Source: Spartobacteria bacterium (GTDB lineage Bacteria > Verrucomicrobiota > Kiritimatiellia > RZYC01). From it: DNA of 64,000 nucleotides. Under the pieces are notes generated by a model, which worked only from the letters and a program-made list of their open reading frames with translations, ran no database searches and was not told the DNA's origin. Shown one piece after another: positions 3,436 through 47,979 of this stretch. Each line of letters opens with the position of its first letter. The stretch's first letter is position 1. Location: the NCBI GenBank assembly GCA_009930475.1, contig RZYC01000001.1:17062-81061 (forward strand), read 5' to 3'. The translations under genes were made by a program, and so were the position numbers.

Positions 3436-3540
3436 GTGGGGCCGGGCCCTATGCAACGAAAGCGGGTGAACCACGTCAGGACCGGAAGGTAGCAGCGTTA
3501 AATCATGTCTTCCGGGTGCCGTAGGTAAACCTGGCCCCCT
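3436..3540 (+). ncRNA. ffs: Small (4.5S-type) signal recognition particle RNA
   Basis: It contains the conserved domain IV motif GUCAGGACCGGAAGGUAGCAGCG. The 5' GGGGCCGGGCCC pairs with the 3' …CUGGCCCCC, and a T-run follows (3540-3546). It lies immediately upstream of dnaX, as in many bacteria. Confidence 0.65.
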
Positions 3541-5452: not shown

Positions 5453-5540
5453 AAAAAGTTCCAATGATTGGAACTTTTAACTCTCTACTATTCCAATGAT
5501 TGGAACTTTTAATTTAAAAAGTTCCAATGGTTGGAACATT
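5453..5540. repeat. REP-like palindromic repeat cluster A (3 units)
   Basis: There are three units of the near-perfect palindrome AAAAGTTCCAATGATTGGAACTTTT: 5453-5478, 5491-5510 and 5517-5540. The cluster lies between the convergent dnaX and RAYT paralog 2. Confidence 0.85.
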
Positions 5541-5559
5541 GTAAATTCTTTCTATGGAT

Positions 5560-5870
5560 ATAAACTTGGCACGCCTACTGCTCCTTCAACGATGCATATT
5601 ATTTGTTCTTTAACATTAGCATTACTTAGGCTGGCAAGACCGACTGATTTATTCTCCGCCCTGAGGCTGGGGAGTGACAAGCAGGCCGCCGCAGACCCGA
5701 ACGCGCTGCAAGCCGCTTGCTCCACACACACACACCGTCACCCATAAAACAGTAAGCCAAACCAGTCTTGATTACACGTTCACGAGAAAACCTCAGCGCG
5801 TTATGCGCACTCCTTCATACACAATGCCGGGCCGGAGCGGGAATAACCCCGCCCCGGCCGGTGTCGTTTT
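5560..5870 (+). pseudogene. Diverged duplicate of the 5' region of the hsp20-like gene (relic copy of 7920-8330), including a relic sigma-54 promoter
   Basis: Nucleotide similarity of roughly 70-80% runs through 5567-5870 versus 7925-8330. For example TTGGCACGCCTACTGCT matches TTGGCACGCGTATTGCTG, and …ATGCGCACTCCTTCATACACAATGCCGGGCCGGAGCGGGAATAACCCCGCCCCGGCC matches 8262-8320. Internal stops and frame changes are present, and only short spurious ORFs (5496-5747, 5674-5994) remain. Confidence 0.45.
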
Positions 5871-5900
5871 AAGACTTGTTGTTTCTAAAATTACTCCGAC

Positions 5901-6950
5901 TCAGCACCAATGTCCCAGATCACGAATGGTATACAAGCCGTCCCACCCTCCGCGTATTTTTCGTGCTCCGGTTTTTCGTGCCGGAGCAAAATAATCCCTG
6001 TTCTCATCAAAGAACTGCTCCACAAACTCCTGAGAGCCGAAGACCTGTCCATCTGAAAAAAAACGACTCCGACATTGTAGTCGTTCGAACGAAGAGATTT
6101 TCATCCGTTTCTTTAATTTGTTTGGAATCATATTCTTATCAAGAAACGCGAAATTAGGGTTTTTACATAGCTCCTCGTACATCAATACCCGCTCCCAGTA
6201 AACATTCAAAGCCGCCGTCCATGAACCCACCTTGTCAGTCGCTCGAACCGTGTTATCCAGCTGTTTCACCCCCGATGCCAGCACCACAATCCCTCTTTGT
6301 GCGGAAAGGCTCCCGCCCATGGCCTCACCTAGCCCGCAAAAACGATATTTCTTGGGATCATCGACCATCCCCGCTCGAACCGGATTCATTTCTATATATG
6401 CCGCCATAGTACGCAGTGCCGTCCCATCCTCCACCAGTACGCTTTTAAAGCGTCGTTCCCACAAGGTTCCGCAACGGCCAGCTCTGCGATTGAACCAGCA
6501 GGAGAATCGCTGTTTCACCTGCTTCATAAACTCACTGATATCGTGCATTCGAACAAGATATCGCTGCTTATCCTCCGCAATAAAAGCTGTTAGCCCCGCC
6601 TGATCCCATGCTTGCCATCTACTACAAATTTCATCTACATCCTCTTTAGAATACAAACAGCGCAATCGATCTATCAACTGCGCATCCGTAATCAAAAGGA
6701 CGTCCGCGCGGTCTGGTTCCTCCAGCAGTAGATGGATATGATTTGTCATCAGCGCATACGTTAGAACGCGTACTCCGGAGAACCCCTCAACCCGTCGAAT
6801 CAAACGGCGCATGTGTTCTTTTTCCACAGATCCCAGCAGCATATCCCGATTCACAATGCGCGACATGCAATGATAGTAGGCCAAATGATCGCGTTTTATT
6901 CGTGTTTGTTTCATGAATCGATACAAGCATGGGAACATATATAAATGCAA
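5901..6950 (-). mobile_element. RAYT/IS200-like Y1 HUH transposase paralog 2
   Basis: MKQTRIKRDHLAYYHCMSRIV… carries the HUH motif TNHIHLLL, the tyrosine motif AAYIEMNPVRAG, and the conserved C-terminal block …SRFFSDGQVFGSQEFVEQFFDENRDYF…LYTIRDLGHWC. REP clusters flank it at 5453-5540 and 7813-7903. Confidence 0.75.
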
Positions 6951-7682: not shown

Positions 7683-7812
7683 TCATCGGGCGGGCGATTT
7701 GTCCCATGGGAGGTCGGCGGAGTGCGGGCGTTTTGGCGCACTCGGACAAAAGGCACAGCGTAATGTTTATTTTGACGGGGAGATGTTTGAGGCGGGGCTT
7801 TTTATGGAAAAT

Positions 7813-7903
7813 AAAAAGTTCCAATGATTGGAAGTTTTAACATGTTGTTTTTCCAGTGGTTGGAAGTTTTGTTTTAAAAAGTTCCAATGATTGGAACTTT
7901 TTA
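7813..7903. repeat. REP-like palindromic repeat cluster B (3 units)
   Basis: Units are at 7813-7838 (…GATTGGAAGTTTT), 7851-7870 (TTCCAGTGGTTGGAAGTTTT) and 7877-7903 (AAAAGTTCCAATGATTGGAACTTTTTAA). Confidence 0.85.
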
Positions 7904-7925
7904 ATATTTCCTCTGAGCGTGATAT

Positions 7926-7942
7926 TGGCACGCGTATTGCTG
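7926..7942 (+). promoter_or_regulatory. Sigma-54 (-24/-12) promoter for the hsp20-like gene
   Basis: TGGCACGCGTATTGCTG matches the TGGCACG-N4-TTGCW consensus, with exactly 10 nt between GG and GC. It lies about 60 nt upstream of the ATG at 8005. A degraded copy (TGGCACGCCTACTGCT) is at 5577-5592 in the duplicated segment. Confidence 0.5.
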
Positions 7943-8004: not shown

Positions 8005-8754
8005 ATGCGACAGTGGAACTGGACAGCACTCATACATAGTATCACGGCAGACCGCATTGTTCTTTTTACCGTTTTAGCTTTTCAGGTTGGTTTGGCCGGC
8101 TGGTTCTATACCTACACCCGCGAGGGTGACAAACAAGCGGCCTCAGAACTGAACACACCTGACGGCCGATTGTCGATCCAACACACACAAAACGTCGCTT
8201 CTCAGCCAGTCGGTCAACCAGCCTTTTCCGATTCATCATCAGTAATACCCTCATCAATGCGCTCAATGCGCACTCCTTCACACAGTGCTGGGATGGGGCG
8301 GGTGATAACCCCGCCCCATCCTGTGGCATTAATGGATGAATCGTTTATCACTCCGATATCTTTTACGGATTCGCGCGCCGTGATGGCTCAGATGCAGGAT
8401 CGTATGCGTCGCCGGATGGAAGCGTATCAGCAGAAAAATGCTCTTATTTATTCTGATGATGACTGGTCTGGACTGGCGCGGAGTCCCACGATGGATATGC
8501 GCGAGCGAGGGGATGTCTATGAAGTCACTTTCAGTATTCCGGATGCGAAAAATCGGGATATTACCACGGATTTGCAAGATCGTCTTCTGACGGTTAATGT
8601 GAATCAATCGAATGAATTTGACAGGGGGCATGCCCAGCAGTCGTTTACCAGTCGCATCCTTCTTCCGGAAGACATTGATAGCGACAAAGCCATAGAGACG
8701 CGTTTCAAAGACGGCAATGTGATTCTGAGTATTTCCAAGTCAGCGGCGCAATAA
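8005..8754 (+). CDS. Membrane-anchored small heat-shock protein (Hsp20/alpha-crystallin family)
   Basis: The C-terminus has an alpha-crystallin-domain pattern (…RERGDVYEVTFSIPDAKNRDITTDLQDRLLTV…SFTSRILLPEDIDSDKAIETRFKDGNVILSI…). The N-terminus has a TM helix (IVLFTVLAFQVGLAGWFY) followed by a P/S-rich linker. The ORF track starts at a TTG at 7990; an ATG lies at 8005. Confidence 0.6.
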   Translation: MRQWNWTALIHSITADRIVLFTVLAFQVGLAGWFYTYTREGDKQAASELNTPDGRLSIQHTQNVASQPVGQPAFSDSSSVIPSSMRSMRTPSHSAGMGRVITPPHPVALMDESFITPISFTDSRAVMAQMQDRMRRRMEAYQQKNALIYSDDDWSGLARSPTMDMRERGDVYEVTFSIPDAKNRDITTDLQDRLLTVNVNQSNEFDRGHAQQSFTSRILLPEDIDSDKAIETRFKDGNVILSISKSAAQ

Positions 8755-8778: not shown

Positions 8779-9513
8779 ATGCTGAACATCTACGATATAC
8801 ACAAGAACTTTGGGAAAATTCAGGCCGTTAACGGACTGTCATTTCATGTGGGCCGAGGTGAGATTCTGGGATTTCTTGGACCAAACGGTGCGGGAAAATC
8901 CACGACCATGCGGATGATTACAGGCTTTCTGAGGCCGAGTTCAGGAAGTGCCGCCATCGCCGGCTATGACATTCAGACCGATTCGTTGAAGGCAAAAAAA
9001 CATCTGGGTTATCTTCCTGAAAATGCACCGGTGTATGGCGATATGACGGTTCTCGCGTTCTTGCGTTTTGTGGCGTCCGTCCGAGGATATCGCGGGCAGC
9101 GTTTGCGTCAATGCCTTGACCGCACGCTGGAACACTGTTCCCTGACATCGGTCATTCATCGCCCCATCCACACCCTTTCCAGGGGATTCCGTCAGCGGGT
9201 CTGTTTTGCACAGAGCATCCTGCACGAACCGGATGTTCTGATCATGGACGAACCAACGGACGGGCTGGATCCCAACCAAAAATTTCTGGTGCGCAAAATG
9301 ATACGGGAGATGGCCAAAGAGAAAGCCATCGTCATTTCTACGCATATTCTTGAAGAGGTGGATGCTGTTTGCAGCCGGTGCATTATTATCAATAATGGAC
9401 AGATGGTTGCCGAAGGCACACCCGAAACACTGCGTCTTCAAAGCCCGGCCGGGCGGTTGGACGACGTTTTCAGACAATTAACGATTCCGAAAAGCGAGGT
9501 CATGGCAACATGA
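8779..9513 (+). CDS. gldA: ABC-2 type transporter ATP-binding protein (GldA-like)
   Basis: It has the Walker A motif GPNGAGKST, a signature region, the Walker B motif LIMDEPTDGLD and an H-loop (244 aa). It is followed by ABC-2 permease, GldG-like and DUF4340-like genes. Confidence 0.7.
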   Translation: MLNIYDIHKNFGKIQAVNGLSFHVGRGEILGFLGPNGAGKSTTMRMITGFLRPSSGSAAIAGYDIQTDSLKAKKHLGYLPENAPVYGDMTVLAFLRFVASVRGYRGQRLRQCLDRTLEHCSLTSVIHRPIHTLSRGFRQRVCFAQSILHEPDVLIMDEPTDGLDPNQKFLVRKMIREMAKEKAIVISTHILEEVDAVCSRCIIINNGQMVAEGTPETLRLQSPAGRLDDVFRQLTIPKSEVMAT

Positions 9514-9785
9514 ACGACGGCGAAGAAATTTCAAAAAAAGTACAGGTGGGGTGTCCGGAGGGTATCCATATGCGCATTGCCGCAGAACTGCTCATAGCGG
9601 CGAGGGGATTCAATGCCGTATGGCACATAGAAAAAGACGGGATGACCGCATCGGGGCAGAGCCTGCTGCAAGTACTGGCACTGGGCGCATGCCTGGGATC
9701 CCAGTTAACACTGTGGGCATCGGGTCCGCAGGCGGCCTCACTCATCGAAAAACTGTCACAAATCATTCAGCAGGGCATCGGGTAG
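9510..9785 (+). CDS. HPr-family phosphocarrier protein (HPr/NPr-like)
   Basis: The 91-aa product aligns along its whole length with E. coli HPr. The active-site His context GIHMRIAAELL matches GLHTRPAA, and the Ser46 context MTASGQSLLQVLALG matches KSASAKSLFKLQTLG. Its start overlaps the gldA stop (ATGA). Confidence 0.7.
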   Translation: MNDGEEISKKVQVGCPEGIHMRIAAELLIAARGFNAVWHIEKDGMTASGQSLLQVLALGACLGSQLTLWASGPQAASLIEKLSQIIQQGIG

Positions 9786-9825
9786 CGAATACAACGCACC
9801 CTGACGACGGCAAACAGGAAGCAAT

Positions 9826-10560
9826 ATGAGCAGAACGGGATCGCTTTTTCGTCGGGAATTCAAGGCCTTTTTCGAAACGCCGGTCGCGTATGTTTTCCTT
9901 GTCGTATTTCTGGTTATGACCGGTTTTTTGACCTTCTTTGTGAGTCATTATTATGAGGCTGGGCAGGCTGATTTAAGCGGTTTTTTCATATGGATCCCCT
10001 GGGTTTACCTCGTTCTTGTGCCAGCGGTCACGATGCGGTTATGGAGCGAAGAGCGCCGGACGGGAACCATCGAGCTGCTGCTGACGCTGCCCATAACCAC
10101 GACGCAGGCTGTGGCTGCCAAATTTTTGGCCGGCTGGGCGTTTATGATCTTGGCACAGCTGCTGACTTTACCACTGGTCGCGACCACGATGTGGCTGGGA
10201 GATCCCGATCCGGGGCCGATTATTGGCGGGTATCTGGGATGCATTATGCTGTCCGGGGCCATGGTGTCCGTGGGATGCGTTATGTCGGCCACCACGCGTA
10301 ATCAAGTCATCAGTTTTATTTTGTCAGCACTGGTTTCTCTGTTTCTGATACTGGCGGGGTGGCCGCCGGTAACAGACATGCTGGCGGCATGGGATCCGGG
10401 GTGGGTCATTCCTTTTGTGGCGAAATGCAGCGTGATGCCGCATTACGAAACCATGCAGCGGGGCGTGCTCGATTTACGCGACGGGGTATATTTTATCAGC
10501 ATCATACTGTTCATGCTCGCGGCGGCGGTCACCGTTATAAACGAACGAAAAACGGTTTAG
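9826..10560 (+). CDS. gldF: ABC-2 family transporter permease (GldF-like)
   Basis: It is 244 aa with 6 predicted TM helices, begins MSRTGSLFRREFKAFFETPVAYVF…, and the motif EERRTGTIELLLTLP is typical of ABC-2 permeases. Confidence 0.65.
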   Translation: MSRTGSLFRREFKAFFETPVAYVFLVVFLVMTGFLTFFVSHYYEAGQADLSGFFIWIPWVYLVLVPAVTMRLWSEERRTGTIELLLTLPITTTQAVAAKFLAGWAFMILAQLLTLPLVATTMWLGDPDPGPIIGGYLGCIMLSGAMVSVGCVMSATTRNQVISFILSALVSLFLILAGWPPVTDMLAAWDPGWVIPFVAKCSVMPHYETMQRGVLDLRDGVYFISIILFMLAAAVTVINERKTV

Positions 10561-10571
10561 CGGAACATGAC

Positions 10572-12407
10572 ATGAGACACAACGGCGCTCTGAACTGTTT
10601 CTTAAAAAGTTACCGGCTGCTTGGTCTGGCGGCCTTAGCCGTGGCCCTTGCTGCGATCAATATACTCATCAGTCCGTGGGTGATTCGTCAGGACATAACC
10701 GAAAACAAATTATACACGCTTTCTCAGGGAACCATTGATTTGGTGGCCTCGCTGGAGCATCCTGTGACGGTCAAACTGTATTTCAACAGCAGTGATCCGC
10801 AGATTCCCGTCATGCTGAAGCAATATGCACAACAGGTTCGCGAAGTCCTGAACGAATATGTTGTGCTTTCCCATGGAGACATCATTTTGGAAGTCTATGA
10901 TCCGGAACCTGATACCCGTGCGGAAGACTGGGCGCTGCGCTATGGGCTGCGTGGGCAGATGCTTTCACCCGCAGGGCCGGTATTGTATTTCGGACTGGTG
11001 ATGACCTGCGGGGACAAAGACGCGCTGATTCCCATGCTGGATCCCCGGGGAGCCTCCATGCTCGAGTATCGTATTGACCAGCTGCTGGTCAAGGTGACCG
11101 AAGAACGCAGGCCGGTGGTCGGCGTCATGTCGGAACTGCCCGTGCTGGGTCATCCTGTGGCGGACGTAATGGGGGCGACAGGAATCGACCGGGGATGGGC
11201 CCCATTTGTGGAATTACGGGACAATTTTGATTTACGATCGGTGAGCAGTGCGGCGACACATATCGATGACCATCTGTCGTCATTGATCATGGTCAACCCG
11301 CGACAGCTCAGTGACGATACGCTTCGCGCCATAGATACCTATGTAGGGCAGGGGGGGCATCTTATCGTATTTGTCGATCCGCTCAGTTATGCCGGCGGTG
11401 AAGCCGAAGAAATCCCTCGTGCAATGGACAGACATTGCAGTATGACGCAGCTGTTTGAAAAATGGGGTATCAGCTACAATCCACAGAAGGTTGTGGCCGA
11501 TCTACAGGCTGCATCGCCCATCAAAGGTCCGCGCGGACAATTGCTGGAGAACCCCGTCTGGTTGTCGTTATATCGGGGCGGCGTGCAGCCGGATCATATC
11601 ATCACATCGCAACTCGCAACCCTGCTTTTTCCGGCGGCGGGCGCGTTTACCTATGTTGTAACGGGCGACCTCACCGCGGTTCCGCTGCTGCATACATCCA
11701 AGTCATCCTACACCGTAGATGCACGCACAGCCAAAACACAGAATATGACCCGCCTGCGTGCACTGTACAAGGAAAGCGATACAGAAGAGCACGTGATTGC
11801 CCTGTTATTGCGCGGACGGTTTCCATCGGCTTTTGACTCAGAAAATCATGCGCTCGGAAAGACGGCGGCCGTCCTGCTCGTGGGCGACAGCGACCTGCTG
11901 TATAATCCTTTCTGTACCAAGCCTTCCAGCCGGTACGGTACATCCGTGGATCAACCCATCAACGACAATATCGCCTTCGTCCTCAATGCGGTGGAAAACA
12001 TGGCCGGCAGTGATTACCTTCTTAATATCCGGTCACGTGGAAATAACGTATATCCCTTCACCATTGTCCAGCAAATGCTGCGCGAAGTTCAGGTTCGCTA
12101 CATTGCACAGGAACAGGCGCTTGAGCAGCAATTGGCGGCCACCCGCGCCCAGCTGAAAGCCATCGAACAACAAAATGAGCAGGCACCGCAGCTGGTGTTA
12201 ACGGAAACCCAGCGAAATGCGTTGGAAACCTCCCGTAAACAGGAATATCAGATCAAACAGCAGCTGCGCACCCTGCGGCGGGAACTGACCGGCGACATCG
12301 AACGGCTGGGCATGTTGATCAAGGCCGTCAATATGCTGCTCATGCCCCTGCTGGTATGCCTGTTCGGCATCGGCTTCTGGCTGATTCGTCGTGTGCGGGC
12401 CTCATGA
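10572..12407 (+). CDS. gldG: GldG-like ABC-transporter-associated protein
   Basis: It has an N-terminal TM helix, a large extracytoplasmic domain, and a C-terminal coiled coil followed by a TM helix (…IKAVNMLLMPLLVCLFGIGFWLIRR). The start was chosen at an ATG (MRHNGALN…) downstream of the gldF stop; the ORF-track extension to 10359 overlaps gldF. Confidence 0.6.
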   Translation: MRHNGALNCFLKSYRLLGLAALAVALAAINILISPWVIRQDITENKLYTLSQGTIDLVASLEHPVTVKLYFNSSDPQIPVMLKQYAQQVREVLNEYVVLSHGDIILEVYDPEPDTRAEDWALRYGLRGQMLSPAGPVLYFGLVMTCGDKDALIPMLDPRGASMLEYRIDQLLVKVTEERRPVVGVMSELPVLGHPVADVMGATGIDRGWAPFVELRDNFDLRSVSSAATHIDDHLSSLIMVNPRQLSDDTLRAIDTYVGQGGHLIVFVDPLSYAGGEAEEIPRAMDRHCSMTQLFEKWGISYNPQKVVADLQAASPIKGPRGQLLENPVWLSLYRGGVQPDHIITSQLATLLFPAAGAFTYVVTGDLTAVPLLHTSKSSYTVDARTAKTQNMTRLRALYKESDTEEHVIALLLRGRFPSAFDSENHALGKTAAVLLVGDSDLLYNPFCTKPSSRYGTSVDQPINDNIAFVLNAVENMAGSDYLLNIRSRGNNVYPFTIVQQMLREVQVRYIAQEQALEQQLAATRAQLKAIEQQNEQAPQLVLTETQRNALETSRKQEYQIKQQLRTLRRELTGDIERLGMLIKAVNMLLMPLLVCLFGIGFWLIRRVRAS

Positions 12408-13468
12408 AACAGCTGCTGCTGATCATTGTTGCGGCAGGGCTGGCCTTGCTGGCGTATCGCGCGATAGAACTGGAAAAAAACGATATCCCTCCGGAAACGC
12501 AGACGGAAGAGCTCTTGCTGCCCCAGCTGACTAAACCGGGATTAGCCGATGCGATTCATCGCATGGAGTTCTATTTCAGTCATAGCACAACGATTGTTGC
12601 CCGTGTAGACGGCACATGGAGTCTTTTGGATCATGGCCGCTATCCCGTTCGAAAAGAGCTTGTTACTACGTTGTTCCGCACCCTGAGCACCCTGCGTGTC
12701 GGTCAGGTGGTGCATGTCCGGCCGGATCAATATGCCGACCTGCATCTGGTGGCGTCCACCAACGATCTTGACTCAGATTTTGTACAGCTTCGTCTGCTGG
12801 GCCGGGACTGGGAGGCCGTCATCGACCTCATCATTGGTTCTTCTCGCGAAGCAGCGGCTCAGGAATCAAAAGCATATCATGTACGTATGGGCGACCAGGT
12901 TTTTCTCGTAAGCGGGGCCTTGCCCGAACTGCAAAGCGACCCGATGGCCTGGGTGGATAATACCCTTGTGGACGTTGACCCCGAAAGCATTACTCGTATC
13001 CGCATCGTCCAGAGCGAACAGACGACCGTTCTGACTCGCCGCATGGACAAACAGGGATGGTATGTGGCCGGGATGGCTCCGGCACTGGATCCCGATCCTG
13101 AAAAAATCGATAAACTGAAAACCATACTTAAAAAGCTCTCTTTTCTGGATGTTCACAAGGTCGACCGGCGAGCCTTTTCCGGATCGCAGACAGAGGAGTA
13201 TACTTTTTGGACGGAAGACGGGTTGACGTACACGTTGTCCGTCGCATCCGACCACGTCATCGCATCCGGCAATCTGCGCATCATGCTTGATGTACAGGCA
13301 TCGCCCGAAGACGGGGTCATCTGCTCTGAGCTCACACTGCAAAAGGCCGAAGTGCTTCGGACGCAATGGCAGGATCGGGTCTTTCTCATTCCCGGCTACC
13401 GTACCTGCCATCAGGGAATCAAACCCGATGATTTTGGCATACCACGGAAACGCGGCGCACCGAATTAA
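12404..13468 (+). CDS. DUF4340-like protein (fourth gene of the gldAFG-type module)
   Basis: MKQLLLIIVAAGLALLAY… has a signal/anchor sequence, and the ATG overlaps the gldG stop. The position and size are typical of the DUF4340 partner. The family assignment rests on context. Confidence 0.4.
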   Translation: MKQLLLIIVAAGLALLAYRAIELEKNDIPPETQTEELLLPQLTKPGLADAIHRMEFYFSHSTTIVARVDGTWSLLDHGRYPVRKELVTTLFRTLSTLRVGQVVHVRPDQYADLHLVASTNDLDSDFVQLRLLGRDWEAVIDLIIGSSREAAAQESKAYHVRMGDQVFLVSGALPELQSDPMAWVDNTLVDVDPESITRIRIVQSEQTTVLTRRMDKQGWYVAGMAPALDPDPEKIDKLKTILKKLSFLDVHKVDRRAFSGSQTEEYTFWTEDGLTYTLSVASDHVIASGNLRIMLDVQASPEDGVICSELTLQKAEVLRTQWQDRVFLIPGYRTCHQGIKPDDFGIPRKRGAPN

Positions 13469-18120: not shown

Positions 18121-18152
18121 CCTTCAATGATTGGAACTTTCGATGGTTGGTT
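18121..18152. repeat. Truncated REP-like remnant
   Basis: CCTTCAATGATTGGAACTTTCGATGGTTGG contains one near-complete REP core plus half of a second. It lies between the Fic remnant and the hppA stop. Confidence 0.45.
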
Positions 18153-26378: not shown

Positions 26379-26488
26379 AGCGAGCTCCTCACGGGTTACA
26401 CCTTTCTGATTACTGCCATAACGAACAAAAGCTAACAAAATAATTCAAACAATAACAAGTCATGGTGCGAAATAATACAAAAACAGCA

Positions 26489-26516
26489 TTGACTCTACGA
26501 TCTCGGTCTATATATT
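26489..26516 (+). promoter_or_regulatory. Candidate sigma-70 promoter for tRNA-Ala
   Basis: TTGACT, then a 16-nt spacer, then TATATT, lying 24 nt upstream of the mature tRNA 5' end. Confidence 0.35.
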
Positions 26517-26540
26517 TACGCCATATTTCACACAACGAGT

Positions 26541-26616
<76 letters not shown>

Positions 26617-26907
26617 CTCGTTTAACTTACACATTGCCAGCCACTTAGCAAAACAAAGACAGTCCCGAAAAACGCCACTTCTAACGGTAACTCATAACGC
26701 GTGTCATTTTGTGCTATGCTGTTTTTCCTGTAATTTTGCCCCTGATTTAATGCTTTTTTCACCTATGCAGAAATTTAATTTAAATTATTTTCAATTTCTT
26801 TTGATGTCATTAATAGCCTGGATATATTTAGACTTATTTTTCCTTTTTGCATTTGCTGGAGGACTGATATACACTCTCACCCAGTCATCGAATATGGAGA
26901 AAATCAC

Positions 26908-27864
26908 ATGTGCACAACTATACGACTTGGTATCAGTTCATGCCTGATGGGCGAAAAAGTTCGTTACGACGGACAACACAAACTGGATCATTACCTGCGG
27001 GATGAGCTGGGATCATTTGTTGAATATATTCCGGTTTGCCCTGAGGCCGAATCGGGGTTCAGTATTCCACGGGAGGCCATGCGTTTGGTGGGCGATATCA
27101 GCAATCCCAGACTTTTCACTGTGAATTCCAAAGTTGATGTGACGCAAAAGATGACGCAATGGATTGCGATGCGTATCAAGCAACTGGAGGGAGCGCGACT
27201 GGATGGCTATATTTTCAAGTCGAAGTCTCCCAGCAGCGGAATGGAACGGATCAAAGTCTACCCCAGCCCCGAAGGCGGAATGCCGACCAAAAAAGGAGTA
27301 GGCCTCTTTGCCCGTGCTTTTATGGATCACTTTCCTACTCTTCCGGTAGAAGACGAAGGACGCATGCATGATCCTGTACTTCGCGAAAATTTTATCGAGC
27401 GTGTTTTTGTACATGCGCGATGGCAGACGTTTTTGGGTGGTAAGCCAGACAAGGCCGGATTGATTGCTTTTCATCGCCGTCACAAATTGTTGCTTATGGC
27501 CCACGATGTGGCGTCCTATCGATCCATCGGAAAAATGGTGGCCCAACTGTCAAAAGCTGACGTCGATACCTTTTTAGTTGAGTATATTGCCTTGCTTATG
27601 AAGGGCTTGTCACACAAGGCAACGTTGGCGAAAAACACCAATGTTCTTCAGCATATTATGGGATATTTCAAAAAGCAGTTAAGCCATGACGAAAAACAGG
27701 AAGCGGTGGAATTGATTCAGCAGTACCATGATGGACTTATACCCCTAATTGTCCCCGTTACGTTGCTGAATCATTATGTGAGAAAATACCAGACAGAATA
27801 CCTCCTGGATCAGTACTACTTACATCCCCATCCAGCAGAACTGAAACTGCGAAATCATGCGTAG
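26908..27864 (+). CDS. DUF523 (TudS-like, Cys-rich) / DUF1722 fusion protein (YbgA-like)
   Basis: The N-terminus MCTTIRLGISSCLMGEKVRYDGQHK is typical of DUF523. The product is 318 aa with a helical C-terminal half. A GGAGA RBS precedes the start. Confidence 0.6.
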   Translation: MCTTIRLGISSCLMGEKVRYDGQHKLDHYLRDELGSFVEYIPVCPEAESGFSIPREAMRLVGDISNPRLFTVNSKVDVTQKMTQWIAMRIKQLEGARLDGYIFKSKSPSSGMERIKVYPSPEGGMPTKKGVGLFARAFMDHFPTLPVEDEGRMHDPVLRENFIERVFVHARWQTFLGGKPDKAGLIAFHRRHKLLLMAHDVASYRSIGKMVAQLSKADVDTFLVEYIALLMKGLSHKATLAKNTNVLQHIMGYFKKQLSHDEKQEAVELIQQYHDGLIPLIVPVTLLNHYVRKYQTEYLLDQYYLHPHPAELKLRNHA

Positions 27865-29388: not shown

Positions 29389-30402
29389 ATGAGAAGAAAA
29401 CGAATCAAGCGAGACCACCTAGCGTACTATCACTGCATGTCGCGCATTGTGGGGCGAGGGATGTTACTGGGCGATGTGGAGAAAGTGCACATGTGCCGGC
29501 TTATTCGCCGTGTTGAAGGCTTTACAGGGGTTCGCGTTCTCACCTATGCGATCATGACGAATCACATTCATCTGCTGCTGGAGGAACCAGATCGTAATGA
29601 GATACATCAGATGACTCACGAAGAGCTTGTGAAGCGATTGCTGTATCTGTACTCGCAAGATGATGTCGACGAAATATGTGCTCGCTGGCGCATGTGGGAG
29701 AGGGAAGGCCTTCTGGCCCTGGTGACCGAGGACAAGCAGCGTTATTTGGTACGGATGCATGATATCAGTGAATTTATGAAACAGGTAAAACAGCGGTTAT
29801 CCTGCTGGTATAACAGAAATAACGGACGGTACGGGACGTTGTGGGATCGTCGCTTTACGAGCGTGCTGGTGGAAGATGGTGCGGCACTGCGCACGATGGC
29901 GGCGTATATCGAAATGAATCCGGTGCGGGCAGGAATGGTGGATGACCCGAAAAAGTACCAGTTCTGCGGATTTGGAGAAGCCATGGCCGGTGTAAAACGG
30001 GCGATGTGCGGCATTATGAAGCTGGCCAGCGGACTGGATTGCATGGATGATGCGGTGCGGGCTCGGGAACGGGCGGATTCATGGGATGTTGCGTCGTCGA
30101 TCTACTGGGAACGGATTTTGATGTACGATGAAGTAACGAAAAACCCTCATTTTGCGATGCTGGATATGGATATGATTCCAGATAAATTGCGTAAACGAAT
30201 GAAAATATCTGATTTTGAACGACTGCGATGTCGAAGTCGCTTTTTTTCCGACGGGCAAGTCTTTGGTTCGCGTGACTTTGTGGAAGATTTTTTTGAGCAT
30301 AATCCTGATCACTTTGGAATCACCCGCAAAACAGGTGCTCGGAAAATACGCGGAGGGTGGAACAGCCTGTACTCCCTTCGAGATCTGGGAAACTGGTGCT
30401 GA
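29389..30402 (+). mobile_element. RAYT/IS200-like Y1 HUH transposase paralog 3
   Basis: MRRKRIKRDHLAYYHCMSRIV… carries the HUH motif TNHIHLLL, the tyrosine motif AAYIEMNPVRAG, and the C-terminal block …SRFFSDGQVFGSRDFVEDFFEHNPDHF…LYSLRDLGNWC. It is about 75% identical to paralog 2. Confidence 0.75.
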
Positions 30403-30599
30403 TTCATTAATTATATATATCTTTAATATTTCACATATAGCCTCTTATTTTGTTTATGACATGGTTTTGAAGTAAGTCATTCATAAGTATGTATCACGTA
30501 TCCACATGGCGTGCTGTGTATTACCCGAATCGAATCTTCAGGTCGTTCACATGGCACACCCTGTGCGTCTTGTTTTTCAACACAAAACAAGAAGAGATC

Positions 30600-30800
30600 A
30601 TGGACGCATGTAACGAACAAATTCAAAAAGCAATGGAGTTATCTCGTCAGTTAATTATACTGGCGGACGACGGAGAGGCTGTGAGCGATGATGATGGTTG
30701 TATTTTACTGTATAGCATTATTCGTGATTGTGGGTATCGCATACGAAAGCAGGCAGATCACGAACGTGAAGCGCATAAGATGTCGAATAGATGGAAATAA
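30600..30800 (+). CDS. Small hypothetical Cys-containing protein (66 aa)
   Basis: MDACNEQIQKAMELSRQLIILADDGEAVSDDDGCILLYSIIRDCGYRIRKQ… ends 3 nt before the thioredoxin-like gene. The RBS is weak. Confidence 0.25.
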   Translation: MDACNEQIQKAMELSRQLIILADDGEAVSDDDGCILLYSIIRDCGYRIRKQADHEREAHKMSNRWK

Positions 30801-30803
30801 ACA

Positions 30804-31277
30804 ATGAAAGGTTGGGTTATGAAAAACGCAATATGGATTGGGGTGGCGATAGTGGCCGGAGTATTGATCTTATCAAACCGCGGTCGTGCCGCAGACATTG
30901 ATCATAGCGCATGGATGACGGATTTTCCTGCTGCGCAGGAACAGTCGAAGAAATTAAATAGACCCATGCTAATCGATTTCTCTGGTTCTGACTGGTGTGG
31001 ATGGTGCGTAAAACTGGACAAAGAAGTTTTTAGCCAGGGCGTGTTTAAGGAGTACGCCAAAGACAATCTGGTATTGTTTATGGCTGATTTTCCTCGGCGA
31101 ACACAGCTGCCGGAGGGCATAGCTCAGCAAAATGAAATGTTAGCTGAGAAATATAAAATACGCGGATTTCCCACAGTGATCTTGCTTGATCCGGACGGAA
31201 AAGTGATTGGAACCACAGGATATCAACGCGGGGGTCCAGAGGCATATATATCTCACTTAAAAACGTTTATGAAATAG
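30804..31277 (+). CDS. Secreted thioredoxin-fold protein (thioredoxin-like, WCGWC motif)
   Basis: It has a signal peptide and the CxxC motif in SDWCGWCVKLD, plus a thioredoxin fold (…GFPTVILLDPDGKVIG). An alternative start lies at 30819 (MKNAIW…) with an AAAGG RBS. Confidence 0.65.
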   Translation: MKGWVMKNAIWIGVAIVAGVLILSNRGRAADIDHSAWMTDFPAAQEQSKKLNRPMLIDFSGSDWCGWCVKLDKEVFSQGVFKEYAKDNLVLFMADFPRRTQLPEGIAQQNEMLAEKYKIRGFPTVILLDPDGKVIGTTGYQRGGPEAYISHLKTFMK

Positions 31278-31452
31278 TTTTTCACCGGATCAACTTCGTA
31301 CATACATCCGTAGCTGGTAGTGACAAGCATGTTGCTGCCAGCTGGAATTAATATACACGGTAGATATTGCGTGACATAATTTAGATGCTATAATTCGTCT
31401 ACAAGCGGAATGTTAACAAGATATATTTTTGAAGATATAAGACATACAAACA

Positions 31453-32655: not shown

Positions 32656-32657
32656 CC

Positions 32658-34340
32658 ATGGAGTCATCTCAAAAAACACGGGTGTCCGGAACAGAAGTCC
32701 GTATAAAAGGTGTCGCATTAAGCGAAGGCATTGCCATCGCGCGTATCTGCATGTTCAATGAACATCGCCACAGCAATCTCCCGATGTACAAAGTAACGGG
32801 TGATGGAGTAGAACGCGAATTGAACAGGCTGGAGCGGGCGCTTGACATCGCAAAAGAACGAATTGGTCAGTTGCAGGAATCTGTCGTCGAGAACATCGGC
32901 GCGGCGGAAGGAGAGATCTTTACGGCCCACAAGATGATTCTGGATGATCCGTCTCTCCACCAAAAAATCGTGCAGCAGATCGAAACAACTGGAATCAACG
33001 CAGAAACGGCCGTATCACAGGTTCTTGATTCTTTTGAGGCCCGCATGCGGTCGCTCGGCGACGAATATATGCGTGAACGCGCCTCGGATTTTGCTGAAAT
33101 TCGTGATCGGATACTCGATGTGCTGGGCAATATGCACCCCGCGCTGCAATGCGATGATCAGCACTGCCTGCATGGTAAAAACCGTATGGTGGTAGCGGAG
33201 GAATTGACGCCGAGCCTGACGGTGGATCTGGATACATCATCAGTATGCGGATTTGTGACTGAACGCGGCGGCGTGAATTCTCATGCCGCCATTCTTGCCA
33301 GGGCACTGGGTATTCCGGCGGTCAGCGGCATTCGGGGGATTCGTGACATGGTCGGATGCGGCATCGAATTGCTGGTAAACGGTTATGACGGTGAAATCAT
33401 CATCTGGCCCCATGAAAAAACCGTGCATGATATTCTGGAAGCGCATCCTCAGCATCTGCGTCGTCACGAGATCGTGGAGCCGATTGATGGGTTCTGCGTC
33501 ATGGGAAATATCAGTATTTCCCGAGAGACCAATCAGTGCTTAAAGATGCTGCCCGACGGCATTGGCCTATATCGAACAGAATTTGAACTGATGGATGCCG
33601 GACGGTTTCTTACAGAAAACGAATTGTACGAGCGCTTAAAATCAGTAGCACAGGCTTTTGACGGCAAGCCGGTCGTATATCGCCTTCTGGATATCGGCAG
33701 TGACAAGACGATGCCCTTCATGAATATTGATAAAGAGGAAAATCCTGCGCTGGGTTTACGCGGAGCCCGCTTATTATTGAGCCGCCCCGAACTGATTGAG
33801 ATACAGGCACGCGCACTGGCACGTGTTTCCAGGGACTACACCGTTCGTGTTCTGTACCCCATGATCGCCGATGTAGCCCAATTTGAAGCGGTAGACCGCA
33901 TTTTTTCTGCGGCCGCGCAGTCCTTGGGACAAGGGCGCATTCTGAAAGGAATCATGTTTGAAGTCCCCTCCGCCTGTTTAGTAGCAGATGAACTGTTTGA
34001 GCGCATTGATTTTGCAAGTATCGGAACCAATGATCTGTTGCAGTATCTTTTTGCTGTGGATAGAAATAACGAACATGTTGCGGCAGATTACAATCCGGAT
34101 CATCCGATTTTCTGGGGTGTGATACAGCGTATGGCGACCCTGGCTGATAAATATAATAAACCCCTGTCCATGTGCGGCGAAATGGCTGGAAATCCCCGAT
34201 TCATTTCCAAACTGATCGAATGCGGAATTCGCAGCGTAAGCGTAAGTCCCATGCGCATTCCGGACGTACGAGCTGCGGCGCAGAGCAGCCTGCAGCTTTT
34301 GGCAAAGACAAACTCATTTACCGGCTCTGTCGCCGGATAA
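32658..34340 (+). CDS. ptsI: Phosphoenolpyruvate-protein phosphotransferase (PTS Enzyme I)
   Basis: The active-site His region [21 protein letters not shown] matches [43 protein letters not shown] and [19 protein letters not shown] are further PEP-utilising-enzyme signatures. The ATG sits 3 nt after the FDP stop. Confidence 0.8.
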
Positions 34341-34359
34341 AACACAAAAGGAGAACATC

Positions 34360-34749
34360 ATGGCTAAACTAAAAGAAATATACAAATGTGAGTTGTGCGG
34401 AAATATAGTCGAAATCGTTCACGGCGGAGCTGGATCGCTGGTTTGCTGCGGTGAAGCCATGAAGCTCATTGGCGAAAATTCCACCGATGCCGCCACAGAA
34501 AAACACGTGCCCGTCATTGAAAAAATCGACGGCGGTTACAAGGTTAGCGTTGGCAGCACATTGCATCCGATGGATGAAAAACATTACATCGAATGGATTG
34601 AAATCCAGTTCGACAGCAAAGTCGGCCGCAAATATCTCAAACCCGGCGAAGCACCAGTAGCAATATTCAACGGCGTAGATGCCGCGAATGTCACCGCTCG
34701 AGCCTATTGCAATCTGCACGGCTTATGGAAAGCCGCTTACGGAGAGTAA
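34360..34749 (+). CDS. dfx: Desulfoferrodoxin (2Fe superoxide reductase)
   Basis: The N-terminal desulforedoxin-like domain is [34 protein letters not shown] (C-x2-C…CC), followed by an SOR domain (…HVPVIEK…[13 protein letters not shown]…) over 129 aa. An AAAGGAGAA RBS precedes the start. Confidence 0.85.
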
Positions 34750-34752
34750 ATT

Positions 34753-35271: not shown

Positions 35272-35310
35272 AATGACGGTGCAATCGATAAATACAAAAG
35301 GAGAAATAAA

Positions 35311-35472
35311 ATGAAAAAATATGTATGTAATATCTGCGGTTATATCTACGATCCCGAACTGGGCGATCCCGACAGCGGTGTTGCTCCAGGCACAGCCTTT
35401 GAAGACATTCCTGATGATTGGTGCTGCCCTGAATGCGGCGTAGGCAAAGACGATTTCAGTGCAGAAGACTGA
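35311..35472 (+). CDS. Rubredoxin
   Basis: The 53-aa product [53 protein letters not shown] has the CxxCG…CPxCG motifs. An AAAGGAGAA RBS precedes the start. It is not in the ORF track because it is under 60 aa. Confidence 0.85.
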
Positions 35473-35493
35473 TCGAACAACTGGAGAAAAATC

Positions 35494-37470: not shown

Positions 37471-39297
37471 TTATTCGGGCGTCTTGAGGGGAAGCCGAAT
37501 ACTGAAGGTGGTTTTGCCGGATTTGCTGGTGCAGCTCATAAGACCGTCGTGAGATTCGATGATGTGCTGGCAGATGGACAGGCCGAGGCCGGTATTGGTT
37601 TTGCCGACTTTGGTACTGAAAAAGGGATCGAATATTTTATCCATCACTTCAGGGGGGATGCCGCTGCCATTGTCAGTGACGGTAATTTCGGCGTATTGAC
37701 CGTCATTCGGACAGGTGGCGGCGATGCGGATGGTTCCACCTTCGGGGACGGCATCCCAGCTGTTGACAATGAGGTTCATCAGGACCTGTTTGAGTTTATT
37801 TTCCTGTCCGGCAATGAAGATGGCTTCGCCGGGGTCACGGATGATATTGATGTTTTTCTGCCGCAGTTTGTGGTTGAGAAGGATGAGGATATCGTCGATG
37901 AGCGGCTGGACGGCGACGCGGCGCATAACGGGTATGCGGTTGATTTTTGAAAAGGACAGGAGGCTCTCTACAATACCGGCGATGCGTTTGAGTTCGGCGT
38001 CCACCTTTTCCAGTTTTCGGAGAGAATCTTCGTCCTGCATTTTCCGGCGCATGATGGCGACATAATTACTGATGATGCCCAGAGGGTTATTGATTTCATG
38101 AGCAACACCGGCGGCCAGTTCGGCGATGGATTCGATTTTTTGTGAGCGAAGCAGGTATTCATTAACCTGACGGTCACGCGTGATATCTTCGAAGATGATA
38201 ATGGTTCCGAGATAGCGGTCGTTTTCGTCTTTAAAGGGTCCGATGTGAATGCGCAGGTATTTATTATCGCCATGTTTGAATTCGTCCCATGATTTCTCTG
38301 TTCGCTCATCGATGGCCTTCATCAGTTCGGCCGCCTGTTCCGTGATTTCTCCGTCGGCATCTTTGGGAACGATCGCATCCATCGTCAGATTCATGATTCG
38401 GTCCTGATCGATTTCCAGGATTGCGGATGCGGCATAATTGGTAAGATAGACATGGTTCTTTTCGTCGAGAATCACGATGCCTTCAGGGATATTTTTAATG
38501 ATATCTTCGTTGTATTTTTTGAGCAGAAACAATTCCCGGTTGTGATGTTCCAGTTCTTCGCGCGACATAACAAAGGAATAGGTGAGCTTGATAAGCTTCA
38601 CCTTATCGATATCCTGAATTTCCTCGGTTCCGATATTACGTCCGTTCTGCATGATGGTGACACGATCGGCGAGGTCAAATATCTCGTTCATGTTGTGCGT
38701 AATATAAATCACACTGCGTCCCTGGTGGCGCAGACCGAACAGCAGTTTATAAACGCGCTCCATTTCCACCGGCGTAAGCTTAAAGGATATCTCATCGAAA
38801 ATGATCACTTCAGGATGATTAATCAGCACTTTTGCCAGTTCCACCATATGCTGATCGGCCTGCGGCATCAGGCTGAGAGGGATATTGAGATCGAGATCGA
38901 TTCCTAATGAATCCAGCAGCTGCTGCGCTTCTTTCTCCATGACACGCCGTCGCACGCCACCCCACCAGTAGCGCTTAAAATATCCGGCATACATATTCTC
39001 CACCGCATCCAGCGCATTGATCACGTTATTATGCTGATAGAACATGCTGATGCCGTCGCGCATGGCGGTATGCGGCGTGAAATAAGGCATATCAACGCCG
39101 CGATAATAGATCAGACCTTTTTTCATGCGCACTGCACCGCTGAGCACCTTGACGAGGGTGGATTTTCCGGAACGGTGTTCGCCGACAAGACCGTGAATTT
39201 CACCTTTCCGAAGATCAAAATCCACGCCCTTCAGCACCTGTGTGGTGCCGTAATTCACATGAATATTGCGCATCTGCACAATAAGGTCGGATGTCAT
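37471..39297 (-). CDS. Cytoplasmic sensor histidine kinase with an N-terminal ABC-transporter ATP-binding domain (NBD-PAS-HisKA-HATPase_c fusion)
   Basis: Residues 1 to about 240 carry the Walker A motif GEHRSGKST, a Q-loop, a degenerate signature LSLMPQADQHMVELAKVL, the Walker B motif VIIFDEIS and the H-loop YITHNMNE. This region is most similar to the N-terminal half of CUT2 sugar ABC ATPases such as the neighbour at 45117-46607. A PAS-like region follows, then an H-box AHEINNPLG, then HATPase_c (…DNGSGIPPEV…GLGLSICQ…). No TM helices are present. The start overlaps the response-regulator stop (ATGA). Confidence 0.8.
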   Translation of the reverse strand: MTSDLIVQMRNIHVNYGTTQVLKGVDFDLRKGEIHGLVGEHRSGKSTLVKVLSGAVRMKKGLIYYRGVDMPYFTPHTAMRDGISMFYQHNNVINALDAVENMYAGYFKRYWWGGVRRRVMEKEAQQLLDSLGIDLDLNIPLSLMPQADQHMVELAKVLINHPEVIIFDEISFKLTPVEMERVYKLLFGLRHQGRSVIYITHNMNEIFDLADRVTIMQNGRNIGTEEIQDIDKVKLIKLTYSFVMSREELEHHNRELFLLKKYNEDIIKNIPEGIVILDEKNHVYLTNYAASAILEIDQDRIMNLTMDAIVPKDADGEITEQAAELMKAIDERTEKSWDEFKHGDNKYLRIHIGPFKDENDRYLGTIIIFEDITRDRQVNEYLLRSQKIESIAELAAGVAHEINNPLGIISNYVAIMRRKMQDEDSLRKLEKVDAELKRIAGIVESLLSFSKINRIPVMRRVAVQPLIDDILILLNHKLRQKNINIIRDPGEAIFIAGQENKLKQVLMNLIVNSWDAVPEGGTIRIAATCPNDGQYAEITVTDNGSGIPPEVMDKIFDPFFSTKVGKTNTGLGLSICQHIIESHDGLMSCTSKSGKTTFSIRLPLKTPE

Positions 39298-40616
39298 AAC
39301 GCCATATCCAGCTTTTTCATACGGTTGTACAGCGTACGACGACTGATATTCAGGATATCGGCGGCCTTCTGTTTGACACCGCCGCTGCGTTCCAGTGCAT
39401 CTTCGATCATGGAACGACTTAACCGTTCGAAGGCATTTTCATAGGACTCCAATTCATCCTGCTGAAGCAGTTTGGTATATTGCGCGGCCAGATGTTCCGG
39501 CTCAATCAACGGCTTTTCACAGAAAATAACCGACCGCTCAATACAGTTCTTGAGTTCACGGACATTGCCCGGCCAGGTATGGACGCGGATGATCTCCTCC
39601 ACAGAAGGTGAGACGCCCTGAATATTTTTGCCATACACCTTGTTGTACTGCTCGATGAAATAACGGGTCAGCATCATGGCATCATCGGTGCGGTCACGCA
39701 GTGGCGGCAGGTGCAGCGTAATAACGGACAGCCGGTAATACAAATCCTCACGAAACCGCTGGTCTTCGATCAATTCATCCAGATCCTGATGGGTTGCAGC
39801 AATGATGCGGATATCGGTCTTGATGGTTTTATTTCCCCCGACTTTTTCGAATTCCTGTTCCTGAATCACCCGCAGAATTTTTGCCTGGGTTTTCAGACTC
39901 ATATCGCCGATTTCATCCAGAAACAGCGTGCCGCCATTGGCCATCTCGAAGCGCCCAATGCGTTCTTTTATCGCGCCGGTGAAGGCACCTTTTTCATGAC
40001 CGAACAATTCACTTTCCAAGAGTTCGTCGGGAATGGCGGCGCAGTTGATCTTGATAAACGGGGCATCGCTGCGCCGGCTCATCTGCTGGATCGCTCTCGC
40101 CACCAGTTCCTTCCCCGTTCCGCTTTCGCCGGTAATAAGAACCGGAGCATCGGTGGGGGCGGCCTTATCGAGCAGCGACAATACTTTTCTCATCTTCGCA
40201 TCATAAGTAACAATGCCGCCCTGCGGCAGATGAACTCGACCGCCTGCCTGCACCGCCTGTCGGGCATGTTCCCCTATTTCCTGCAGCAGCTGATCGAGAT
40301 CAATGGGTTTGGTATAGACGTTGACGGCACCATAACGCATGGCAAGGACGACATCCTGCACAGTGGGATATCCTGTCATCATCGTTACCGGTAAATCCGA
40401 GGCGATGGACTTGATTTTCTGCAGCAGTTCCACGCCGCCCATTTCAGGCATACGAATATCCAGCATCACCATATCGTAGTTGGTTACCGCGATTTTACCC
40501 AGTGCTTCGGACGGGTGCATGGTCCAGTCCGCGATCATGCCTTCGGATTCCAGCAGTTCCGAAAGCGAGCGGCACATTTCTTCTTCGTCATCCACAATAA
40601 GAATGCGGTAATTCAT
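39294..40616 (-). CDS. Sigma-54-dependent response regulator (NtrC family: REC-AAA+-HTH)
   Basis: The REC domain has a phospho-acceptor Asp (MNYRILIVDDEEE…VMLDIRMPEMGG). The AAA+ sigma-54 activator domain has GESGTGKE, GAFTGA and ESELFGHEKGAFTGA. A C-terminal Fis-type HTH is present. A GAGG RBS precedes the start. Confidence 0.85.
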   Translation of the reverse strand: MNYRILIVDDEEEMCRSLSELLESEGMIADWTMHPSEALGKIAVTNYDMVMLDIRMPEMGGVELLQKIKSIASDLPVTMMTGYPTVQDVVLAMRYGAVNVYTKPIDLDQLLQEIGEHARQAVQAGGRVHLPQGGIVTYDAKMRKVLSLLDKAAPTDAPVLITGESGTGKELVARAIQQMSRRSDAPFIKINCAAIPDELLESELFGHEKGAFTGAIKERIGRFEMANGGTLFLDEIGDMSLKTQAKILRVIQEQEFEKVGGNKTIKTDIRIIAATHQDLDELIEDQRFREDLYYRLSVITLHLPPLRDRTDDAMMLTRYFIEQYNKVYGKNIQGVSPSVEEIIRVHTWPGNVRELKNCIERSVIFCEKPLIEPEHLAAQYTKLLQQDELESYENAFERLSRSMIEDALERSGGVKQKAADILNISRRTLYNRMKKLDMAL

Positions 40617-43631: not shown

Positions 43632-43654
43632 ATCCGCCATCCTCCTTATGTGTG

Positions 43655-43692: not shown

Positions 43693-43707
43693 CTCCCGGC
43701 ATTAATC

Positions 43708-47970: not shown

Positions 47971-47979
47971 TTGGATGGC

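Follow-up and report, generated by a model that had tools for sequence, protein, structure and literature searches.

An HPr-family phosphocarrier gene at the ATPase/permease junction of a GldAFG-like transporter operon with a predicted sigma-54 promoter

Why does a gene for an HPr-family phosphocarrier lie inside an operon for an ATP-binding cassette (ABC) transporter, and does this placement bear on the function of either? The question is raised by a 64,000-nt stretch of DNA, referred to here as the window, from a Spartobacteria bacterium (GTDB lineage Bacteria; Verrucomicrobiota; Kiritimatiellia; RZYC01; assembly GCA_009930475.1, contig RZYC01000001.1, positions 17,062 to 81,061 of the forward strand). 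A preliminary description, made from the sequence alone, had recognized the HPr-like gene and had taken its position to suggest phosphorelay control of, or by, the exporter. Our results support the gene and its setting, but not that interpretation of the setting. About 87 orthologous transporter operons lack HPr; the protein itself is ordinary, and its unusual location, confined to one lineage, does not amount to a conserved new system.

The 91-aa protein encoded at 9510..9785 (+ strand) is a genuine member of the HPr family, in which every testable defining feature was found. The Pfam profile PF00381 (PTS-HPr), proposed as a check in the preliminary description, matched with 63.2 bits (E 2.4e-17; cutoff 23) over residues 7-87, corresponding to profile positions 1-80 of 81, and the NCBIfam HPr family TIGR01003 also scored above its cutoff (55.1 versus 47.9 bits). 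A gapless alignment with Escherichia coli HPr (1ggr_B), pairing residues 9-86 with HPr 4-81, identifies H20 with His15, R22 with Arg17, and S51 with Ser46, which bears out the conserved His15 and Ser46 contexts noted earlier. H20 and R22, at the N terminus of helix 1, are also kept in a sister protein (P0002), and S51 marks the start of helix 2. The Pro18 position is occupied by Ile; residues other than Pro are common there among the 127 closest homologues. The AlphaFold2 model, built on 60 homologues, reached a pLDDT of 95.1 and has the beta-alpha-beta-beta-alpha-beta-alpha topology of HPr, an open-faced beta-sandwich (strands 6-12, 37-42, 45-48, and 65-71; helices 21-31, 52-57, and 75-88). 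All of the top 40 Foldseek matches in the PDB were HPr, Crh, or NPr, the best of them with TM-scores of 0.85-0.87 by query length and 0.90-0.93 by target length at an rmsd of about 1.1 Å. The earlier label "NPr-like" did not hold as family membership: the NPr equivalog model NF008146 gave 20.3 bits against a cutoff of 119, and by this score the protein is not an NPr in the strict sense.

The gene is also under purifying selection. Between it and its one relative, the nonsynonymous divergence (pN) was 0.24 and the synonymous divergence (pS) 0.90, the latter saturated, and its GC and third-position GC (GC3) are like those of the neighbouring genes. A pN far below a saturated pS, together with neighbour-like GC3, points to a gene that is selected and long resident. 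Recent horizontal acquisition was considered and is not favoured: GC and GC3 match those of the neighbours, and the nearest homologues outside the lineage are scattered across phyla at no more than 41% identity.

The gene junctions were confirmed by reading the sequence. The start codon of HPr (ATG, 9510-9512) and the stop codon of the ATPase (TGA, 9511-9513) overlap in an ATGA (...GCAAC ATG A...), and 40 nt separate the HPr TAG (9783-9785) from the permease ATG at 9826. Position 9510 is the earliest possible start in this frame, with a GAGG 10 nt upstream. The same gene arrangement occurs in two independent assemblies (L001 and L002), so it is not an assembly chimera.

HPr is the third of six genes in one transcription unit on the + strand. 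The first (8005..8754) encodes an HSP20-like protein, which has a hydrophobic segment in its N-terminal part and, in its C-terminal part, an HSP20/alpha-crystallin domain (PF00011, E 8.4e-8). It is followed by a 244-aa GldA/DrrA-like ABC ATPase (8779..9513; PF00005, E 2.8e-29), which belongs to a short class described below and is 68% identical to the ATPase of a metagenomic relative (L094). Downstream of HPr lie a 244-aa GldF-like ABC-2 permease (9826..10560), which has thousands of homologues, the closest 57-66% identical; a 611-aa GldG-like auxiliary protein with DUF7088 and ABC_transp_aux domains (10572..12407; PF09822, E 1e-48); and, last in the operon, a 354-aa DUF4340 protein (12404..13468; PF14238, E 2.1e-13), whose start shares 4 nt with the end of the GldG-like gene. 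The latter two are called as genes in L001. Within the operon, consensus scans for sigma-70 promoters and for terminators gave no internal match beyond the chance level.

The neighbours are therefore of the gldA-F-G/DUF4340 type, as initially proposed and now supported by profile. GldA, GldF, and GldG of Bacteroidota gliding motility provide the best-scoring NCBIfam models for all three transporter proteins and share their architecture of ATPase, ABC-2 permease, and GldG-type auxiliary protein. However, all three window proteins fall well under the equivalog cutoffs (275.3 versus 402.6 bits for GldA, TIGR03522; 190.5 versus 288.5 for GldF, TIGR03518; 101.6 versus 389.9 for GldG, TIGR03521), and the operon differs by the addition of DUF4340 and the leading HSP20-like gene. 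By these scores the proteins are homologous rather than orthologous to their Gld counterparts, and the transporter is Gld-like, not Gld.

A permease-based scan of species-representative genomes gave at least 586 confirmed loci, of which the best 80 (L009-L088) were kept; with seven metagenomic loci (L004-L008 and L094-L095), these make about 87 orthologous operons. The transporter operon is very common, in contrast to the HPr lineage; among the best 80, it occurs in Verrucomicrobiota, Kiritimatiellia, Lentisphaerae, Desulfobacterales, Gammaproteobacteria, and Planctomycetota. An HPr gene was found in none of the approximately 87 operons (0/80 genome loci, the best of at least 586, and 0/7 metagenomic loci), and the synteny within gldA-gldF that the preliminary description had suggested looking for is thus not seen. 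An HPr profile run against the six-frame open reading frames (ORFs) of the 80 genome loci and five metagenomic loci matched only the window, two identical copies, and a sister locus (L003). The closest permease relatives (about 65% identity) lack HPr. Among the metagenomic loci, L094 and L095 have the HSP20-like gene, ATPase, and permease without HPr, L004 has the permease directly after the ATPase, and L005 and L007 have the same operon without HPr plus a divergent sigma-54 two-component system; an HSP20-family gene heads the orthologous operon in L005, L007, L008, L094, and L095. Of the refuting outcome named in the preliminary description, a spurious overlap absent from orthologous operons, one half was observed: the gene is absent from those operons, but it is not spurious.

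The junction itself gives the same picture. In nearly all loci examined the permease gene directly follows the ATPase gene, about 30 with a 4-nt ATGA overlap and most others with a gap of <30 nt, an arrangement that appears to be the ancestral state; in the window, the junction measures 312 nt. The insertion of HPr there is lineage-specific. Furthermore, in another Verrucomicrobiota metagenome-assembled genome (L021) an unrelated PD-(D/E)XK gene (PDDEXK_3; 2123-2602) occupies the same position, which indicates that the ATPase/permease junction tolerates passenger genes.

The HPr lineage is very small. A word-based search of 5.8 billion proteins returned only the window HPr and one relative (P0002, 65% identity), and among 1.84 billion cluster representatives, searched exhaustively with HMMER, the next-nearest HPr stood at 41% identity (E 7.7e-11). 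Scans with a two-sequence HPr alignment gave no match in the species-representative genomes and no further lineage member in metagenome contigs, where only two distant HPrs were recovered. One of these two (L089) lies in the canonical cluster EIIA-EIIB-EIIC-aldolase-HPr-EI. At the sister locus (L003), a sigma-54-like promoter precedes an HSP20-like gene whose product is 63% identical to that of the window; HPr follows 81 nt later, and then two unrelated genes. No ABC genes and, by tblastn, no remnants of them were detected in L003, and decay of these genes in place was rejected on this negative search. The presence of HPr behind the HSP20-like gene without ABC genes indicates that the conserved partner of the lineage is the sigma-54/HSP20-like module, not the transporter. 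A limited full-text search of the literature returned neither an HPr gene in a GldAFG-like/DUF4340 operon nor a phosphotransferase system in Kiritimatiellia-type genomes.

About 65 nt upstream of the HSP20-like start lies a sigma-54 (-24/-12) promoter, TGGCACGCGTATTGC (7926..7940, + strand), which matches TGGCAC-N5-TTGC perfectly and is the sole zero-mismatch match in the window. Three palindrome copies, AAAGTTCCAATGATTGGAACTTT (7812..7901, unstranded), spaced by 31-32 nt and centred at about -125, -93, and -62 from the predicted transcription start, form a putative enhancer (upstream activating sequence) for a sigma-54 activator. Both features by which sigma-54 dependence was judged, a perfect -24/-12 element and upstream palindromes, are thus found in the window. 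The 15-nt palindrome TTCCAATGATTGGAA has 26 matches in the window against 3.4 expected, with sites at 5459-5536, 7819-7896, 36687-36763, 40672-40748, and 18122-18136, and its arrays consist of three copies at 31-32-nt spacing. The array at 5459-5536 stands ahead of a second sigma-54-like promoter, TGGCACGCCTACTGC (5567-5581), with the same geometry as at 7819-7940, and the divergent spacers between arrays 5459-5581 and 7819-7940 argue against a recent duplication.

Orthologous operons in other genera are preceded by the same palindrome arrays. In L094, there are four copies, which abut a sigma-54 promoter (at about 1138); L018 and L061 have palindrome pairs 32 nt apart ahead of the operon, and sigma-54-type promoters are also present in L003 (at 156), L005 (at 3642), and others. 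On the strength of the perfect promoter and of palindrome arrays conserved in relatives, we take the operon to depend on sigma-54 and to carry a conserved module for activator binding, and TTCCAATGATTGGAA is probably bound by a single sigma-54 activator, whose targets would make up a small regulon. The NtrC-type sigma-54 activator encoded at 39294..40616 (- strand; Sigma54_activat, E 1e-74), a response regulator, is a candidate for the control of the HPr/ABC operon; the array at 40672-40748 lies just upstream of its gene.

We do not favour the alternative that the palindromes are mere repetitive extragenic palindromic (REP)-like repeats tied to the four IS200-like Y1 transposase genes of the window. 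It would account for the array at 36687-36763, which lies between convergent genes, but less readily for the constant geometry relative to the sigma-54 promoters (5459-5581 and 7819-7940) despite divergent spacers, which favours activator sites, or for the palindromes that precede the orthologous operon in L094, L018, and L061.

If HPr acts as a phosphocarrier, its presumed phosphoryl donor is the Enzyme I (EI) encoded at 32658..34340 (+ strand). This EI has three domains, an intact N-terminal HPr-binding domain, a mobile domain, and a PEP-binding domain, and no GAF domain. As the preliminary description had it, it is the sole Enzyme I in the window and lies 23 kb from the HPr gene in an oxidative-stress operon, flanked by a flavodiiron protein on one side and desulfoferrodoxin/ferritin on the other. 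The gene order over 30552-36642 is a 66-aa ORF, thioredoxin, FprA flavodiiron protein, EI, desulfoferrodoxin, ferritin, and NAD(P)H oxidoreductase, with a sigma-54-like promoter at 30552-30566 upstream of the 66-aa ORF and thioredoxin. EI orthologues (57% identity) occupy the same operon at L091 and L092, with thioredoxins, FprA, EI, rubrerythrin, ferritin, and glucose-6-phosphate dehydrogenase, plus desulfoferrodoxin in L091. At both loci, a gene for a sigma-54 activator carrying LMWPc and PAS domains stands ahead of the operon, and -24/-12 elements occur at the equivalent position; at L093, EI has a different redox context. No HPr gene adjoins EI in the window, L091, or L092. Fusion proteins among the EI matches include FprA-EI (P0326, 952 aa) and EI-LMWPc (P0379, 707 aa).

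Other components of a phosphoenolpyruvate (PEP):sugar phosphotransferase system (PTS) are missing from the DNA that was covered. No Enzyme II (EII), hprK, ptsN (EIIA-Ntr), rpoN, or second HPr gene was found in the window, and gene calls over about 6.7 kb to its left contained no PTS families, hprK, ptsN, rpoN, or second HPr either. The sugar uptake genes in the window are of the ABC type.

We lean, with little more than even confidence, towards the following explanation: that the protein is a functional phosphocarrier made from a sigma-54-dependent transcript, coupled in translation to the ATPase, partnered with EI in a regulatory PTS without permeases, and tied in its supply to a stress regulon. 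The HPr gene would have been inserted, in its lineage only, at the ATPase/permease junction of a widely conserved sigma-54-dependent operon. With no promoter of its own, it would be read on the transcript that starts from the sigma-54 promoter at 7926, and ATGA coupling to the ATPase would provide for its translation; in most relatives, this overlap lies between ATPase and permease, and HPr would have taken it over. Its abundance would then track a sigma-54 (envelope or protein) stress regulon, and it would serve as the partner of the orphan Enzyme I (32658), itself presumably expressed from the oxidative-stress operon with its sigma-54-like promoter, in a PTS-Ntr-like phosphorelay. Its role would be in regulation rather than transport; direct control of the exporter by HPr is possible but unsupported. 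The evidence establishes what the protein is, with its catalytic residues and fold, the overlap and the layout of the operon, the sigma-54 promoter sequence and the palindromes conserved with it, the lineage-specific insertion, and purifying selection; transfer of phosphoryl from this EI, the regulatory role, and the downstream targets are inferred.

Several points weigh against this explanation. Phosphotransfer from the Enzyme I at 32658-34340 to HPr is presumed, the sigma-54 dependence of the operon is deduced from sequence, and rpoN itself was not found in the window. The array at 36687-36763 has no evident promoter role, and the palindromes could in part be dispersed repeats. Only the 64 kb of the window and about 6.7 kb beside it were covered, and another HPr, HprK, EIIA, or even EII permeases may be encoded elsewhere. 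Finally, the lineage comprises two species-level sequences, one of them a 2.6-kb contig, from which the direction of the rearrangement is not readable.

A less likely alternative is a humbler origin, in which HPr is the organism's ordinary, and possibly only, HPr, a neutral hitch-hiker that landed by chance in a tolerant junction and borrowed nothing but its promoter. The lineage-specific insertion, the selfish-type PD-(D/E)XK gene accepted by the same junction, and the taxonomically scattered closest homologues, at most 41% identical, would all be as expected. Nevertheless, in two diverged species (63-65% protein identity) HPr has stayed in an operon headed by one and the same HSP20-like gene with a sigma-54 promoter, and the persistence of this linkage, though the rest of the operon differs, argues for selection on it; a housekeeping HPr on an activator-dependent sigma-54 promoter would moreover be silent without an inducing signal. 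We consider chance landing unlikely, while granting it a real share of the probability. An artefact, whether spurious ORF, pseudogene, or assembly chimera, would explain the absence of HPr from orthologous operons, but it has next to no probability in view of the strong profile and fold matches with intact catalytic residues, the identical arrangement in two independent assemblies, and a 65%-identical orthologue with pN far below pS.

A further alternative, the idea of the preliminary description, is a dedicated regulator of the exporter, in which phosphorylation-dependent binding of HPr to the nucleotide-binding subunit or the permease gates export and ATGA coupling ensures stoichiometric co-synthesis. 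EIIA-Glc acts on MalK, and the proposed HPr would resemble EIIA-Glc binding MalK or the control of ABC transporters by PTS-Ntr. In its favour, the HPr start overlaps the ATPase stop within the transporter operon, the window ATPase is of the short class, which lacks the C-terminal domain of about 70 residues found in the long class, and PTS proteins are known to regulate ABC transporters, EIIA-Ntr being listed as such a regulator in PMC4635465. On the other side, HPr is absent from the approximately 87 orthologous operons, many of them with the same short ATPase; the sister HPr adjoins no ABC gene; the ATGA coupling appears to be a property of the ancestral ATPase/permease junction; and the unrelated gene in L021 sits in exactly this place. 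These same observations removed the ground for reading phosphorelay control of or by the exporter from the placement, and we find a dedicated regulator rather improbable.

The length of the ATPase deserves separate comment. The GldA-like ATPases of L009-L088 fall into two length classes, a short one of about 210 residues from Walker A to the end and a long one of about 275-293, and both end in GRLDDVFRxLT; the short class is typical of Kiritimatiellia/Lentisphaerae-like loci. The window ATPase covers only positions 3-222 of the 301-position GldA model, and its conserved C-terminal motif, GRLDDVFRQLT, is intact. The possibility that HPr replaced a lost C-terminal domain of the ATPase was rejected, as ATPases of about 245 aa ending in GRLDDVFRxLT are the norm in the nearest clade without HPr. 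An intact terminal motif and a clade-typical short length thus indicate that no lost domain was replaced, and the HPr profile gave no match on the long ATPases.

A bolder extension of the favoured explanation would make EI and HPr a sigma-54-wired stress phosphorelay and not a sugar PTS, in which the PEP or redox state read by EI sets the phosphorylation of HPr, and HPr couples oxidative or energy stress to envelope export by attaching reversibly, as a regulatory subunit, to the short-type ABC-2 ATPase or to the HSP20-like membrane protein. The place of EI in a conserved oxidative-stress operon with a sigma-54-like promoter, the FprA-EI and EI-LMWPc fusions in relatives, and the synthesis of HPr together with the ATPase of an envelope exporter are the observations behind it. 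We rate this as improbable.

Comparison with known systems places the window HPr between several of them. It resembles PtsH of the sugar PTS in family, fold, size, His15/Arg17/Ser46, and gapless full-length alignment, but it differs in lying beside neither ptsI nor EII genes, for which L089 offers the canonical contrast, in its place within an ABC exporter operon that has a sigma-54 promoter, and in the change of Pro18 to Ile. With NPr (PtsO) of PTS-Ntr it shares the standing of an HPr paralogue, the purely regulatory role envisaged for it, a genomic link to sigma-54, and the lack of an EII permease; in E. coli, NPr affects envelope-stress tolerance and lipopolysaccharide synthesis (PMC4635465). 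Unlike NPr, the window HPr gene would be a sigma-54 target and is not an rpoN neighbour, no rpoN or ptsN being present in the window, and the window Enzyme I lacks the GAF domain of EI-Ntr; the window contains neither the canonical cluster rpoN-hpf-ptsN-rapZ-ptsO nor a GAF-bearing EI-Ntr. In Bacillus cereus, the HPr-like protein Bc1009, which is encoded in the SigB stress cluster and controls a sub-regulon (PMC9912610), offers a parallel as an HPr-family gene embedded in, and expressed with, the stress regulon of an alternative sigma factor, and acting on a sub-regulon rather than on sugar transport. It differs in phylum, sigma factor (SigB versus sigma-54), and neighbours, which include no ABC transporter. 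Lastly, alpha-proteobacteria such as Brucella have an incomplete PTS without permeases that is thought to be regulatory only (PMC2937029). The likeness is PTS proteins without permeases; however, Brucella has EI-Ntr, NPr, EIIA-Ntr, and EIIA-Man, whereas the window has only EI and HPr, each in a different stress operon.

The HPr described here is a variant on a known theme, in which regulatory HPr paralogues are connected to an alternative sigma factor. A functional tie between HPr and its operon, if real, would mean that the link of regulatory PTS proteins with sigma-54 and the cell envelope, so far known mainly from proteobacterial PTS-Ntr, reaches the Verrucomicrobiota/Kiritimatiellia group, where PTS proteins occur without sugar permeases, and it would offer a handle on the function of the widespread GldAFG-like/DUF4340 exporter family. 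The restriction to one small lineage limits the generality of these results, and there is no sign that a functional coupling with the transporter has been conserved. The conserved place of EI in oxidative-stress operons with sigma-54-like promoters is probably a more general and more testable lead than the placement of HPr.

Some further features of the proteins and genes discussed above may be recorded. Two cysteines are common to both members of the HPr lineage, Cys15 (9552-9554) in the loop that leads to His20 (CPEGIH) and Cys61 (9690-9692) after helix 2 (GACLGS), and Cys at the second position is rare among the 127 homologues. As EI belongs to an oxidative-stress operon, they could conceivably form a redox-sensitive disulfide near the HPr active site. 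Co-oriented and overlapping with the NtrC-type activator gene, and with a palindrome array just upstream of the pair, is a gene for an unusual 608-aa sensor kinase, in which PAS, HisKA, and HATPase_c are joined to an ABC-ATPase domain at the N terminus (37471-40616, - strand, activator included). An ORF for a methyl-accepting chemotaxis protein (40665-43751, - strand) runs with its 3' end (40665-40748) through the palindrome array, which gives it a repeat-encoded tail.

The four paralogous genes of about 330 aa with an IS200-like Y1 transposase domain (PF01797) lie at 1253-2272, 5901-6950 (- strand), 29389-30402, and 47962-48942. They might be REP-associated (RAYT-like) or domesticated, and in the window one of them takes the place of the sigma-54 activator gene that relatives have ahead of the EI operon. 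The second sigma-54-like promoter at 5567-5581 is followed by about 280 nt without a Pfam-recognizable gene, and a strong GC-rich hairpin with a T-run at about 5829-5872 closes the region 5567-5875 (RNA fold z-score, -2.6). This region, which has no Rfam match, may encode a small RNA under sigma-54 control or hold a 51-aa ORF from 5592. A 161-aa ORF at 26462-26947 overlaps a tRNA gene (26541-26613; Rfam, 67 bits), has no Pfam hit, and is probably not a gene. The only other Rfam match in the window is the signal recognition particle RNA at 3440-3539.

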